DNA of 12,758 bases from a virus (lineage: Duplodnaviria; Heunggongvirae; Uroviricota; Caudoviricetes): IMG/VR virus record IMGVR_UViG_2636415500_000004. One strand, written 5' to 3'. Position 1 is the stretch's first letter; each line of letters begins with the position of its first letter. Positions 48-11,239 of this stretch are shown here, piece after piece. Below the pieces are notes generated by a model. That model did not search any database. It saw nothing but the letters and a program-made list of their open reading frames with translations, and had not been told where the DNA came from. A program made the translations under genes and the position numbers.

Positions 48-254
48 CTTCATTTTCACTTTTTTAAATCCAACGACAGACGGCTGGCATTTAAGTATTG
101 TGAAATATTATCAAATGTAATCATCATTGATTTACAAAAGATACATTTTGCCCCGAAAGGATTCATGTCAGAAACATCAAAAGATGATGTTCTATACTGG
201 GAACCATGACAACACGGGCATCTAAAGTGAATATGGTTTGTAATATTGTCTACC

Positions 255-467
255 TCAAAGCGCCACTACATGAACAGCGGCAGGACCTTTAGGTCCGTTC
301 TCAATACCAAATTCAACTTCCTGATTCTCAGTTAATGTTTTGAAATCGTTGCTCTGAATTGCTGAGAAATGGACAAACACATCTTTGCTGCCATCTTTCG
401 GCGTGATGAAACCAAAACCTTTTTCAGGGTTAAACCATTTCACTAAACCAGTCATTTTGTTAGACAT
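255..467 (-). CDS. cspI: Cold-shock protein, CspA family (70 aa)
   Basis: ORF translation [21 protein letters not shown]...[10 protein letters not shown] carries the cold-shock domain RNP motifs (KGFGFI, VFVHF). RBS AAGG 7-8 nt upstream as in cspA-type genes. Assigned cspI by neighbourhood. Confidence 0.93.
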
Positions 468-630
468 AATTATTACCTTTTGAAGAAATTAGCCCTTGGG
501 CAGAATGGTCCGAAAAAAAATATCAGAGAGAAAAACCAACAAGGAAATCTCAAGAGGTACAAATAATAAAATTATAACAATGACTGCTTCAGATAAATTT
601 GTAACAAACCAGAACACCATTAACGCATGA
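468..630 (-). promoter_or_regulatory. cspI promoter and long 5' leader (about 145 nt)
   Basis: Minus strand carries GCGTTAATG (candidate -10 at 619-624), the same motif found upstream of cspB and resembling the cspA promoter region; AT-rich UP-like tract further upstream. Long leaders are typical of cold-inducible csp genes. Confidence 0.5.
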
Positions 631-2169: not shown

Positions 2170-2385
2170 TTACTCTCCTCTCGCAGCCTTACGCCTGTCT
2201 TCTTTAATCTTGAAATAAAGATTTGTCAGATACGTCAGCAGGCCAAAAACCAGGCTACCCAGCACACCGATTGCAGCCCACTGTGACGGAGTTACTTTAT
2301 CGAGTAACTGCAATGCCCAGAAACCAGCATTACCCGCCGATGTGCCATAGGCAACACCTGTTGTTAACTTATCCATTGATTTCAT
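2170..2385 (-). CDS. essQ: Class II holin / pinholin, S21-like (71 aa)
   Basis: Translation [28 protein letters not shown]...[10 protein letters not shown]: dual-start motif M-K-S-M, two TM segments, charged C-terminus. RBS GGTGAGG upstream. The ORF-track version (96 aa from 2460) is an over-extension. Confidence 0.9.
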
Positions 2386-2516
2386 ATCCTCACCCCGATG
2401 TACACGGATGGTGCAATATGTTTGAAAAGATCGGAGTCTACGGGGTAGTTTTGACAGCACACGTTGTTCTCAACGGCGCTAAAAAAACATACACATTAAA
2501 AATGTGGGTAATTATT

Positions 2517-2545
2517 TTGAAAGAAAGTCATATATAAAATAATAA
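2517..2545 (+). promoter_or_regulatory. Candidate sigma-70 promoter for the zinc-ribbon mini-protein
   Basis: TTGAAA (2517-2522), 17-nt spacer, TAATAA (2540-2545). AT-rich region, so chance matches are plausible. Confidence 0.3.
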
Positions 2546-2604
2546 TACGAGAAATGTTTTCATATTTAGTGTACTGTATACGGCCATTTATACAGGAAAA
2601 GCCT

Positions 2605-2775
2605 ATGTCAGAACGTAAAAACTCAAAATCACGCCGTAATTATCTCGTTAAATGTTCCTGCCCAAACTGCACCCAAGAGTCAGAACACAGTTTTTCAAGA
2701 GTACAAAAAGGTGCCCTTTTGATCTGCCCTCATTGCAACAAAGTATTCCAGACAAATCTTAAAGCTGTAGCCTGA
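2605..2775 (+). CDS. ynfU: Small zinc-ribbon protein (56 aa)
   Basis: MSERKNSKSRRNYLVKCSCPNCTQ...LICPHCNKVF: two Cys pairs (CPNC, CPHC) about 22 residues apart. Good RBS AGGAAA 7 nt upstream of ATG 2605. Length and motif fit my recollection of the Qin small protein YnfU. The longer 73-aa track ORF from 2554 lacks an RBS. Confidence 0.65.
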   Translation: MSERKNSKSRRNYLVKCSCPNCTQESEHSFSRVQKGALLICPHCNKVFQTNLKAVA

Positions 2776-2834
2776 TTGATTTTATTAGTAACAAGTATTT
2801 TTTATATTTTAATAATATATTTAAAGCAGATAAT

Positions 2835-2857
2835 AAAAAACCCGCCTGAGCGGGTTT
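2835..2857 (-). terminator. Intrinsic terminator, strong on the minus strand (likely ends the cspB transcript), weaker on plus
   Basis: AAAAAACCCGC-CTGA-GCGGGTTT; minus-strand reading gives the stem followed by UUUUUUAUU. Confidence 0.6.
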
Positions 2858-3138
2858 GAGATTGTGGTGCTTTTTGTGGGAGTCATCCACTTACGCACTT
2901 TGTTTTGCCATGCCAGCAGTTAGCTTCTGCTGTAAAACTATTCATGCAGCAAACCTGCACTTCACCACAATGGTTAGCATACTTTTCCTGATTAAGATTT
3001 TGCCAAATATGCTAGCCATTGTTTCATGTATTGGACCTCCTTACTTTTTATTAAAGAGATCCAATATTCACTACTCTGTCCGTATCTCTACTCAGGCATC
3101 AGCCTTCTTCGTTATCGTATACAGACGAGCGATGAATT

Positions 3139-3354
3139 TTAATCAGTAATGATGACATTTGCTGCTGCAGGACCTTTAGCACCACTCTCTATAGAGAAGG
3201 TAACCTTTTGACCTTCAAATAAGGTTCGATAATTATCATTCTGAATCGCAGAAAAATGCACAAACACATCTTTACTACCATCAACAGGAGAAATAAAGCC
3301 GAAACCTTTATCAGCGTTAAACCATTTTACTAAACCAGTCATTTTATTTGACAT
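3139..3354 (-). CDS. cspB: Cold-shock protein, CspA family (71 aa)
   Basis: [38 protein letters not shown]... with cold-shock domain motifs. Long upstream leader. Divergent from cspF. Confidence 0.93.
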
Positions 3355-3560
3355 TCTACATTCCTTAACTTGAGCCTTTCGGCATAAATGGTTTGCATAA
3401 CAGAAACGACTTCGTACTTAATTGGAGAGACTCAAAGAAGGAATAAGTGAATAACACCTGAAATGAGAACTGCTTTAGTAAACTACTTCGTATATCGTCT
3501 GTTCTTCAAACCGACGCAATCATTAACGCATAGTTGAACATATGAAGCAATGTTTATTTT
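3355..3560 (-). promoter_or_regulatory. cspB promoter and long 5' leader (about 160 nt)
   Basis: Minus strand has GCGTTAATG (candidate -10 at 3522-3527) followed by GGTTTGAAGAACAGACG, resembling the cspA cold-box region GGTTTGACGTACAGA. Confidence 0.55.
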
Positions 3561-3654
3561 AGACATCCAGCCATCTTCAACCCCATCAAAAAACTATAGC
3601 TTTCTTCAGGAACGTGTGTATAGTGCGCCAAGTTATCAGTATTAAGGAATTTTT

Positions 3655-3867
3655 TTGTCCCGTAAAATGACAGGAATTGTCAAAACCTTTGACGGCAAAA
3701 GCGGCAAGGGTCTTATCACCCCATCCGATGGTCGTATCGATGTCCAGCTTCATGTTTCAGCGCTCAATCTCCGCGATGCAGAAGAAATTACCACCGGATT
3801 ACGCGTGGAATTTTGCCGGATAAATGGTCTGCGTGGCCCTTCAGCTGCCAATGTTTACCTTTCATGA
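3655..3867 (+). CDS. cspF: Cold-shock domain protein, divergent CspF/CspH-type (70 aa), probable TTG start
   Basis: [27 protein letters not shown]...[21 protein letters not shown] is 6 nt before TTG at 3655; the first ATG (3667) has no RBS. Short leader, unlike cspB and cspI. Confidence 0.88.
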
Positions 3868-3921
3868 GCTATATTAAAGCTTTAATTTCAGGCCCCATCG
3901 GATCACACATGGAGAGTTTTT

Positions 3922-4011
3922 ATGAATAACCCCGTCTGTCTTGATGACTGGTTGATTGGCTTTAAAAGCTTATGCTGTACTTTGGCCGTAATAGCTCTGC
4001 TAATAATATAA
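3922..4011 (+). CDS. Candidate small hydrophobic protein (29 aa), [29 protein letters not shown]
   Basis: ATG preceded by GGAGAG with 7-nt spacing; one TM-like hydrophobic C-terminal segment. Lies 55 nt downstream of cspF on the same strand, before the terminator at 4153-4185. Confidence 0.35.
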
Positions 4012-4152
4012 TAAGCAGACTCATTGTGTTTAGGGACATTGTACTGGAAGAAAACATTTTAAACATCAGGCAAATAACCAAGTCACCAGCTAAATAATAA
4101 GTTAACAGACATGAGTCCCGGGATGAGATTCAACATTACCATTGCCCCATTT

Positions 4153-4185
4153 AAAGCACAAAACCCGCTCATCAGCGGGTTTTCT
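4153..4185. terminator. Bidirectional intrinsic terminator; on the minus strand a candidate tR'-like late terminator
   Basis: CCCGCT-CATC-AGCGGG stem with U-tracts on both sides: plus TTTTCTACTTTTTCTT, minus UUUUGUGCUUU. Confidence 0.6.
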
Positions 4186-4228
4186 ACTTTTTCTTAACGT
4201 CGGGTATACAAAGCCCATCGTTGAAAAA

Positions 4229-4257
4229 ATTTTATCCATATTTTTTGAAAAATGCAA
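4229..4257 (-). promoter_or_regulatory. Candidate late promoter (pR'-like) just downstream of the Q-like gene
   Basis: Minus strand TTGCAT (4252-4257), 17-nt spacer, TAAAAT (4229-4234). Sits about 35 nt after the quuQ stop and about 45 nt before the terminator at 4153-4180. Confidence 0.4.
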
Positions 4258-4288
4258 ACATCATGTCGCCATCTTCAGCAAAAATCAT

Positions 4289-5041
4289 TTATCTCGTCAC
4301 CTTCCTCAATTGCGCTTCCGCGTATGCTTCTTCCTGCCAGCACTTTGTTACCAGTTTACCAATGACGTCCGCATACCCCTTATACCACTGATAATCGGTC
4401 AGGTCTGGTACCAGCTTCTGGACATGACGTCGTGCCAGCGTGGTCGGTAAACGACTAAACCGGTTTCCATTACAACGCCCACAAATCTTATATACCGGTA
4501 CGCCATGAAACCGGGTTCTTTTTTCATCCAGAACAATCCCTTTACCCTTACACCCTCTGCACGCTGTGCTGGCTTCGCCCTTACCATGGCAATGCTGACA
4601 TAGTTCCTTCACCCATTCTTCCTTGATTACAGATTCCCCGCGTCTGTAGTGTTTCACCACTTCGCGCAATACATTATAAAATCCCGTACCTGAACAATGC
4701 TCACAGCGAGCCTTACTTGCCGCAGACCTGGAGTAATCAGCAAAGGCAAAACTCACGAGGTAAGGAATAATCTGTAACCGGATTTCTTCACTCAATTTGT
4801 TCAATGTCGGGTTATCCAGTGCCATCGCGTAATTTAGCAGGCCTTCAATCGCAAACTGAGGGTCCTGAACACCAACTTTTGCCAGAAATAAGGCCAACCC
4901 AAGTGGTGCTTTCGACTGCACCATCCCCTGCGCTGCCATTACATCCGTAATTGTTAAACAACCGGTGCCTGTCGCTGGAGCGTCATCGCTCAATTTTGGA
5001 GATTTTGGGGAGTAATATTTTGGTAAGGCTTCAAGGTTCAT
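4289..5041 (-). CDS. quuQ: Putative late-gene antiterminator Q-like protein (250 aa) with four CxxCxGxG zinc-finger repeats
   Basis: Start at ATG 5041 (MNLEALPK...) with RBS GGAG 7 nt upstream; the track start at 5071 would overlap ydfU. Motifs CEHCSGTG, CQHCHGKG, CRGCKGKG, CGRCNGN. Position upstream of the late promoter and lysis genes. Confidence 0.85.
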   Translation of the reverse strand: MNLEALPKYYSPKSPKLSDDAPATGTGCLTITDVMAAQGMVQSKAPLGLALFLAKVGVQDPQFAIEGLLNYAMALDNPTLNKLSEEIRLQIIPYLVSFAFADYSRSAASKARCEHCSGTGFYNVLREVVKHYRRGESVIKEEWVKELCQHCHGKGEASTACRGCKGKGIVLDEKRTRFHGVPVYKICGRCNGNRFSRLPTTLARRHVQKLVPDLTDYQWYKGYADVIGKLVTKCWQEEAYAEAQLRKVTR

Positions 5042-5054
5042 GCTCGTTCTCCAC

Positions 5055-6104
5055 TTACGCCAGTACGCCAATTGCCAGCGCGCGATCGATAAAACGAAAT
5101 ATCAGCTCCAGTTGGGAGCCATACTTATCTTCAAATGCCACTGTATCCGTATGCAGCTCGTTGTGATGCTTTCTGCACAAAGGCAACACAAAGAGATCAT
5201 GTGCTTTTGTTCCCATTCCGCCCTGCCCGTGACCAATCAGATGATGCGGATCGTCGGCTGGCATACCGCAGCAAGCACACGGCTGTGTCTTAACCCAACG
5301 TGTGTATTTCTCCTTAACCCAGCGGCGACGTTTAGGCAGCTTCATGAAAGATTCCGGAGACTCTGGATCAACGGTGATGCTTACCACCGTCTTTTCCTGT
5401 GGTGATTTTTGTTGCTGGTGGGCGTAAGGCAACGGTGCAAGATTTTTTGTGCGTTGTTTCAATATGCTGGTGGCGGTCTGCTCTCCCGGTACGATGTCGC
5501 TTTCGCGGTACACCGAGCAGATTTTTTCCGCTGGTAATCCCAGCGAACGACGCGATACAGCCTCAGGTAGTGCATCCACCACCTGATTGCAGACCGCCCA
5601 CCAGGATAATTCAGCCAAAGATAATTCCCGCTCCTGCGTACCGCTTATTGCGTGACGGATGACGTCAATCACCCATGCTGTCAGATTTTGTTGAGCAAGC
5701 AGCTCCAGTGATTCCGATGTCTGGTCACGCAGTTGGTTGTCGCAGTGCCAGCACAACACCATTGCGCCGGTACCATAACGGTGAATGACTGTTTCAGTGT
5801 GATGGTAATCGCCATTAGGCCACTGGCAGGATGTAACATGACGTAATAGCCAGTCGGACAATGCGCCAACGCCGCCAGCAGCACGAATCACCCGTTCGTT
5901 ACTAAAAAACGGCAGCAATGTTTTGTCTTCCGCCAGCGGCTGGCGAACGGCAGGAACGACTCCGGATGGCAGATTACGCATGCTTTTTGGTTCCGGTTCC
6001 ACCAGCACTCGAGGATTATGAAATATCTGTATGGATTCACGGCCCGGCTTAAGGACCACCAGCCCAAGCTCAGGCACCAGAACAGGTCTAAGTAATACCC
6101 GCAC
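5055..6104 (-). CDS. ydfU: Prophage protein with C-terminal HNH-like zinc-finger nuclease motif (349 aa from GTG 6104)
   Basis: C-terminus CACCGMPADDPHHLIGHGQ...LCRKHHNELH resembles an HNH (His-Me finger) motif. GTG at 6104 follows the TAA of the upstream ORF by 1 nt; the in-frame ATG at 6143 would overlap that ORF by 38 nt. Recalled as YdfU (DUF968). Confidence 0.8.
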   Translation of the reverse strand: MRVLLRPVLVPELGLVVLKPGRESIQIFHNPRVLVEPEPKSMRNLPSGVVPAVRQPLAEDKTLLPFFSNERVIRAAGGVGALSDWLLRHVTSCQWPNGDYHHTETVIHRYGTGAMVLCWHCDNQLRDQTSESLELLAQQNLTAWVIDVIRHAISGTQERELSLAELSWWAVCNQVVDALPEAVSRRSLGLPAEKICSVYRESDIVPGEQTATSILKQRTKNLAPLPYAHQQQKSPQEKTVVSITVDPESPESFMKLPKRRRWVKEKYTRWVKTQPCACCGMPADDPHHLIGHGQGGMGTKAHDLFVLPLCRKHHNELHTDTVAFEDKYGSQLELIFRFIDRALAIGVLA

Positions 6105-11181: not shown

Positions 11182-11239
11182 TTTCTGGTGACGTTTGGCG
11201 GTATCAGTTTTACTCCGTGACTGCTCTGCCGCCCTTTTT
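11182..11239 (+). ncRNA. dicF: DicF small regulatory RNA (Hfq-dependent; represses ftsZ and other targets)
   Basis: Sequence UUUCUGGUGACGUUUGGCGGUAUCAGUUUUACUCCGUGACUGCUCUGCCGCCCUUUUU matches DicF as I recall it. Ends in its own terminator hairpin (GGCGG...CCGCC + U5). Lies inside the dicB operon between ydfC and dicB. Confidence 0.85.

Follow-up and report, generated by a model that had tools for sequence, protein, structure and literature searches.

An inverted repeat that reaches into the ribosome-binding site of a small gene raises the question of whether it controls that gene, as RNA or as DNA, or has arisen as a by-product of sequences that are kept for other reasons. We have addressed this question for ynfU, which lies in a 12,758-nt stretch of DNA filed as a viral record (hereafter, the window). 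The original prediction was that a 7-bp repeat in front of the gene could sequester its Shine-Dalgarno (SD) sequence as RNA, or could serve as a protein-binding site as DNA. The repeat is most likely incidental. It shows no sign of selection, and the finding matters little as it was filed. By comparing the DNA in front of ynfU across genomes, the analysis produced a map from which one particular promoter and one start site are predicted.

The window is Qin, a cryptic prophage of E. coli K-12, and a 501-nt query that takes in the site matches K-12 MG1655 at 100% identity, as it does ~1500 further complete E. coli genomes. Adding 1,638,200 to a window coordinate gives the position in K-12-like records such as NZ_CP026344.1. 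The 56-aa ORF that had been singled out for the pattern CxC-P-x-C ... C-P-H-C was confirmed on the plus strand at 2605-2775 (56 codons and a stop) with both zinc knuckles present. This ORF is ynfU; the identical sequence carries that name in the annotation of K-12 MG1655, and of 5426 complete E. coli genomes, 1653 carry ynfU, annotated every time as “putative zinc-binding protein YnfU”. Translation from the ATG at 2605 to the stop ending at 2775 gives MSERKNSKSRRNYLVKCSCPNCTQESEHSFSRVQKGALLICPHCNKVFQTNLKAVA, in which the cysteines are arranged as C17-x-C19-P-x-C22 and C41-P-H-C44. The ribosome-binding site is as good as was claimed, with AGGA at 2594-2597, 7 nt ahead of the ATG. Full-length profile scores above the curated cut-offs place the protein in both Pfam PF23499 (YnfU; E = 3.5e-31, 107.3 bits against a cut-off of 27, residues 1-49 of 49) and NCBIfam NF038384 (79.4 bits against a cut-off of 36). 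No variation is seen among 26 homologues at P20, C22, S26, E27, H28, S29, F30, P42 or C44, and conservation reaches at least 90% at C17, C19 and C41; the family thus keeps both CPxC knuckles and the SEHSF core.

Both the gene and its zinc knuckles are already known and published. Weaver et al. (bioRxiv 10.1101/511675) found ynfU through ribosome profiling of stalled initiation complexes (Ribo-RET), gave the length of the protein as 56 aa, remarked on its two CPxC zinc knuckles, and detected the tagged protein at the top abundance among the newly found small proteins. The gene was recovered again by PIRT-Seq. No function of YnfU was reported in the literature searched. The family is small, comprising 49 clusters at 90% identity, and an exhaustive profile search returned 41 representative proteins at E ≤ 1e-3 and no tie to a larger characterised family. 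The named source organisms are nearly all Enterobacteriaceae.

The surroundings of the gene are those described originally. On the minus strand, cspI, rzpQ, rrrQ, ydfR and essQ follow one another in that order, and after them come ynfU (+), cspB (-), cspF (+) and quuQ/ydfT (-). With essQ (2170-2385, minus strand) on one side and cspB (3139-3354, minus strand) on the other, ynfU stands alone in a 753-nt intergenic region (2386-3138) that is AT-rich, as had been noted, at 37% G+C. By the gene list and the K-12 annotation, cspB is the convergent neighbor of ynfU, and cspF (3655-3867, plus strand) is the third gene of a neighborhood that recurs in other genomes. In the window from 2170 to 5071, the three genes lie between the Q gene quuQ/ydfT and the lysis cassette (essQ, ydfR, rrrQ and rzpQ), which is the cargo slot of lambdoid phages, and ynfU is oriented antisense to the Q-dependent late transcript. 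The ynfU copy of a Klebsiella phage (locus L089) also adjoins holin and lysozyme genes.

Downstream of ynfU, a G+C-rich hairpin, AAACCCGC/GCGGGTTT, at 2838-2857 scores as a strong terminator on the minus strand and as a weak one on the plus strand. Minus-strand transcripts of cspB probably finish at this hairpin, as do, on the plus strand, those of ynfU. A strong minus-strand terminator ~280 nt past the cspB stop would give cspB a long 3' UTR, with no annotated feature within it (2860-3138). There is a second, weaker terminator-like site on the minus strand at 2944-2960. In some strains of E. coli, an IS200C element has inserted after the ynfU stop and ahead of the shared terminator (NZ_CP063515.1, positions 842-1300 of locus L093; the window equivalent is ~2780-2830). 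Rfam matches above the gathering score were obtained elsewhere in the window for the cspA thermoregulator at cspB (3123-3515, minus strand) and at cspI (228-613, minus strand), and for the DicF sRNA at 11183-11234 (plus strand).

The repeat itself, CTGTATA-N8-TATACAG at 2574-2595, is real, with arms that are 100% complementary over 7 bp and 8 nt between them. The left arm, CTGTATA (2574-2580), covers the last 4 nt of a -10-like hexamer, described below, and the next 3 nt. The right arm, TATACAG (2589-2595), ends on A2594 and G2595 of the SD, so that the reported overlap with the ribosome-binding site holds to the extent of two bases of AGGA. Statistically, the repeat carries modest weight. When the 66 nt ahead of the start codon are dinucleotide-shuffled, 3.7% of the shuffles contain a perfect 7-bp repeat with a loop of 3-12 nt; for the 753-nt intergenic region the figure is 41%. 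Across the whole window, perfect 7-bp repeats begin at 29 positions, against 9.3 ± 3.6 in shuffles. Since the window holds dozens of gene starts, the coincidence of one such repeat with one of them is unremarkable.

Whether the repeat is kept with the gene had been put forward as a check on the original prediction. Upstream regions were gathered from 80 loci on contigs chosen as one genome per species and from loci of other sources, and 61 distinct upstream regions were aligned. The genera covered were Escherichia, Citrobacter, Klebsiella, Raoultella, Enterobacter, Kosakonia, Kluyvera, Atlantibacter, Phytobacter, Salmonella and others. At least six of the seven pairs are kept in only 6 of the 61 distinct regions; most keep two to four, which is about what chance provides. 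Paired cells amount to 47.7%, compared with 47.1 ± 1.1% in column shuffles, and 153 of 500 shuffles were as high. When the register of the repeat columns was slid along the 61-sequence alignment, the pairing score was similar, and RNAalifold found zero consensus pairs in the 61 aligned upstream regions. In the columns of the right arm, most genera read (A)ATCAG and are without the extra A that completes the arm. The repeat is also absent from the divergent phage copies of Klebsiella phage ST13-OXA48phi12.4 and Escherichia phage PHB10. The repeat is therefore not conserved with the gene, which other genera and phages carry without it.

Within the E. coli type there is little variation from which to judge. 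The ynfU site of E. coli-type phages is identical to that of K-12, and both arms are intact in every E. coli-type allele. The 80 viral-contig copies retrieved are 98-100% identical overall, and because they are near-identical throughout, their intact arms are uninformative on selection. In Escherichia sp. E1V33, an A replaces the outer C2574 of the left arm.

A series of blocks at fixed spacing is conserved in front of ynfU. In order, these are an A-tract, G2551, 17 nt, GTG-TA--GT, CC-TT, a few indel-tolerant nucleotides, CAGGA and the ATG. The tract is A/T-rich and UP-element-like (2533-2546, plus strand), and its conserved columns are the A's at 2541 and 2544. A weak -35-like sequence, GAGAAA (2549-2554, plus strand), contains the invariant G2551 and stands 17 nt upstream of the -10-like hexamer TACTGT (2572-2577, plus strand); its part as a -35 element is putative. 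The hexamer reads TACTGT in E. coli and TATGGT in most genera. Its family pattern is TA--GT: 61 of 61 regions share the four named bases, and positions 3 and 4 vary; the three bases that typify a sigma-70 -10 element (T at position 1, A at 2 and T at 6) are accordingly all fixed. Of 85 distinct upstream regions, 83 have this pattern, 76 of them at 27-30 nt before the ATG. The -35-like G is found at the fixed 17-nt spacing in 80 of 83 regions; otherwise usually just the final A of this element is conserved, and the match to TTGACA is weak. The 17-nt spacer is variable in sequence and free of alignment gaps, with indels tolerated only downstream of the hexamer. Further downstream, the block CC(A/C)TT (2584-2588, plus strand), in which CC and TT are near-invariant, would be the transcription-start region as judged from its distance to the hexamer, and the SD region CAGGA (2593-2597, plus strand) is near-invariant in the 61 aligned regions.

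The fixed T, A and T, the rigid spacer of variable sequence and the A-tract are together typical of a sigma-70 promoter that has a weak -35 element and an UP-like element, and from the comparison of upstream regions we infer that the conserved blocks are such a promoter. This reading draws on established promoter anatomy. The match to consensus is low, at 3/6 for GAGAAA as a -35 element and 3/6 for TACTGT as a -10 element. A locus in Yokenella regensburgei has lost the whole block except the SD, and there ynfU comes ~35 nt after a cspF-like gene (~2750-3001 of locus L081), which suggests that it is co-transcribed with the cold-shock gene. Loss of the block where ynfU directly follows a cspF-like gene fits a promoter and not a leader element. 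Conservation of the hexamer is not coding, as the variants TAAGGT, TAATGT and TAAAGT are in-frame stops.

Several other readings of this region were tried. An in-frame ATG at 2554 (2554-2604) opens an ORF of 73 aa, and homologues are extended in this way in several database entries. An N-terminal coding extension from that ATG was rejected, 13 homologues having an in-frame TAA as the first three bases of the hexamer and the published protein being 56 aa long. A shared regulon motif was likewise rejected after an nhmmer profile of the block matched only in front of ynfU genes. Judged by eye, the block does not fit the sigma-E or the sigma-32 consensus. Sigma-S, whose -10 context prefers a C immediately 5' of the hexamer, was set aside on finding a G there. 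That G (G2571, in the GTG 5' of the hexamer; 2569-2577) and G2576 at hexamer position 5 are invariant or nearly so among the 61 sequences. They are unexplained by sigma-70 recognition and could belong to an overlapping factor site. Table S1 of Kim et al. 2012 gives starts for ydfR, cspB and cspF, and none for the gap that holds ynfU.

The account that we favor, and that we regard as probable, is that ynfU is a known gene with its own sigma-70-type promoter and that the repeat is a by-product without a dedicated regulatory role. The gene would be a “moron” of Qin, situated between the Q antiterminator gene and the lysis cassette, with its own sigma-70-type promoter, a short leader, a canonical SD and a terminator that is probably shared with the convergent cspB. 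The repeat would have arisen from two changes in the Escherichia lineage, both inside elements conserved for other reasons. In the -10-like hexamer, TATGGT would have become TACTGT; just before the SD, ATCAGGA would have become ATACAGGA, with an extra A preceding CAGGA. Transcription is predicted to start near 2583-2587. With a start at that position, the left arm overlaps the -10 hexamer and would be left out of the mRNA, and so it is probably not in the ynfU transcript.

The left arm would be transcribed under an alternative in which the repeat is a hairpin in a longer leader, one that begins at ~2553 from an upstream promoter-like site of E. coli, partly masks the SD and is perhaps temperature-tuned. 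A consensus scan does find a site for such a leader, with a -35 TTGAAA at 2517-2522, 18 nt, and a -10 AATAAT at 2541-2546, within the A/T-rich tract, and at 10/12 it scores better against consensus than the conserved hexamers do; this site is not conserved outside Escherichia. If it is used, both arms would be transcribed, and the hairpin is predicted with a probability of ~0.87 at 37 °C. The fold pairs A2594 and G2595, two of the four SD bases, and leaves G2596-A2599 unpaired at ~0.9 at the same temperature, so the SD is not occluded. The isolated hairpin has an energy of -6.4 kcal/mol, no better than shuffles (z = -0.13), with z ranging from -0.8 to +0.07 when longer contexts are folded. Across the 61 regions the structure is neither conserved nor covarying, and an Rfam scan of the ynfU leader returned nothing at the gathering threshold or at E ≤ 10. 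Also against this alternative, YnfU is well expressed at 37 °C, and the predicted probability of the hairpin drops to 0.71 at 15 °C, where competing folds appear. The abundance of YnfU, the highest among the new small proteins of Weaver et al., implies that its translation is not strongly blocked. The proposed sequestration of the SD is thus unsupported, with only A2594 and G2595 paired and neither covariation nor excess stability, and we consider the hairpin leader quite unlikely.

As DNA, the repeat could be an operator of the Escherichia lineage, at which a dimeric host or prophage repressor bound to CTGTATA-N8-TATACAG would block RNA polymerase at the ynfU promoter. The palindrome is perfect, its local chance expectation is the 3.7% given above, and each half resembles a LexA half-site. 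On the conserved-promoter model the palindrome would span ~-10 to +10, a classic position for a repressor. Against an operator, the palindrome is a single copy in the 12.7-kb window even when 3 mismatches are allowed, and it does not recur in use elsewhere: of 120 exact matches to the motif in IMG/VR phage contigs, 46 are the same ynfU site and the others carry 61 different spacers in unrelated contexts. Homologues of other genera and phages are missing the repeat, and Escherichia sp. E1V33 has lost its outer C. The spacing of the half-sites exceeds that of a LexA box by 6 bp. We know of no E. coli regulator with CTGTATA-N8-TATACAG as its consensus. The proposal of a protein-binding site accordingly found no support, in recurrence or in conservation, and we hold an operator to be unlikely.

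The resemblance to LexA deserves separate mention, since the original prediction had called it superficial, and rightly so. Both halves of the repeat, TACTGTATA and TATACAG, read as LexA half-sites, whereas CTGT and ACAG stand 14 bp apart and not 8. No CTGT-N8-ACAG with at most one mismatch occurs at the ynfU site, and the best 20-mer there matches the LexA consensus at 11-12 of 20 positions, a score that is reached dozens of times in the window; the site is not a LexA/SOS box. A further alternative would make the site a degenerate LexA (SOS) or Zur operator, tying a zinc-binding protein to DNA damage or to zinc supply. In its favor, TACTGTATA is a perfect LexA half-site, and the left half of a Zur box is matched perfectly by GAAATGTT at 2551-2558, the full 23-mer matching at 15/23. 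Against it, the Zur box has a poor right half, the LexA spacing is wrong, and neither element is found in other genera. LexA and Zur boxes were both rejected on spacing, score and lack of conservation, and this alternative is very improbable indeed. It may be recorded that a Zur-like left half-site does front the gene of a putative zinc-binding protein. More broadly, it is improbable that the Escherichia palindrome is a recent operator or leader hairpin that puts ynfU under lineage-specific control.

A cold-shock-domain gene lies within ~1 kb of ynfU in 62 of 87 loci. The commonest arrangement, found across enterobacterial genera (loci L002-L088), is ynfU, a convergent cspB-like gene and then a cspF-like gene. 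Klebsiella and Raoultella have a cspF-like gene directly downstream of ynfU on the same strand, and in Lelliottia a YnaE-family gene is just upstream. Much of this adjacency could be inherited synteny rather than independent association. Whatever the role of the repeat, we tentatively raise the possibility, which we rate as somewhat less than even, that YnfU is a zinc-ribbon partner in a conserved ynfU-cspB-cspF cold-shock module that lambdoid phages have taken up as cargo. That ynfU travels with csp genes supplies a concrete condition, cold shock, and concrete partners for an uncharacterised protein.

Other known systems bear comparison with this locus, some of them through the protein. The AF2 model of YnfU has four short strands at a mean pLDDT of 61, which is low confidence; a zinc ribbon fold is plausible and is not established by this model. 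Foldseek of the same low-confidence model against the PDB gave nothing significant, the best match being 2akl (PA0128) at E = 0.4. With the N-terminal zinc ribbon of the PhnA/YjdM type, as in PA0128 (PDB 2akl), YnfU shares a four-cysteine knuckle arrangement, and a resemblance to PA0128 was also reported by Weaver et al. (bioRxiv 10.1101/511675). Pfam Zn_Ribbon_YjdM matches YnfU at E = 1.3e-4, but the 22.4 bits fall below the gathering score of 30.8, and YnfU is without the PhnA C-terminal domain; this is resemblance, not membership. The DNL-type zinc finger (Tim15/Zim17, PDB 2e2z) and the eL42/L44e zinc ribbon have in common with YnfU the pattern C-x2-C ... S/T-E/S-H-S ... KG ... C-P-x-C. Matches of the YnfU profile to PDB sequences are weak (Tim15, E = 0.012; ribosomal protein L44e, E = 0.028), and Pfam zf-DNL scores below threshold at E = 0.074, so that the likeness to DNL and L44e proteins may serve as a lead only.

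Another comparison is with SD-sequestering hairpins and RNA thermometers such as FourU, ROSE and the cspA leader. The ynfU stem is like these in that its 3' arm enters the SD. It differs in covering two SD bases, in lacking excess stability, covariation or an Rfam match, and in having a left arm that may not be transcribed.

In gene arrangement, the locus is like the morons that lambdoid phages carry in the interval from the Q antiterminator gene to the lysis genes. In Stx phages, the stx genes occupy this slot. The genes ynfU, cspB and cspF likewise lie between quuQ/ydfT and essQ, and as in lambdoid morons they have promoter-like and terminator elements of their own and a low G+C content. In contrast to lambdoid morons, ynfU, cspB and cspF are ordinary chromosomal genes, outside any prophage, in most other genera.
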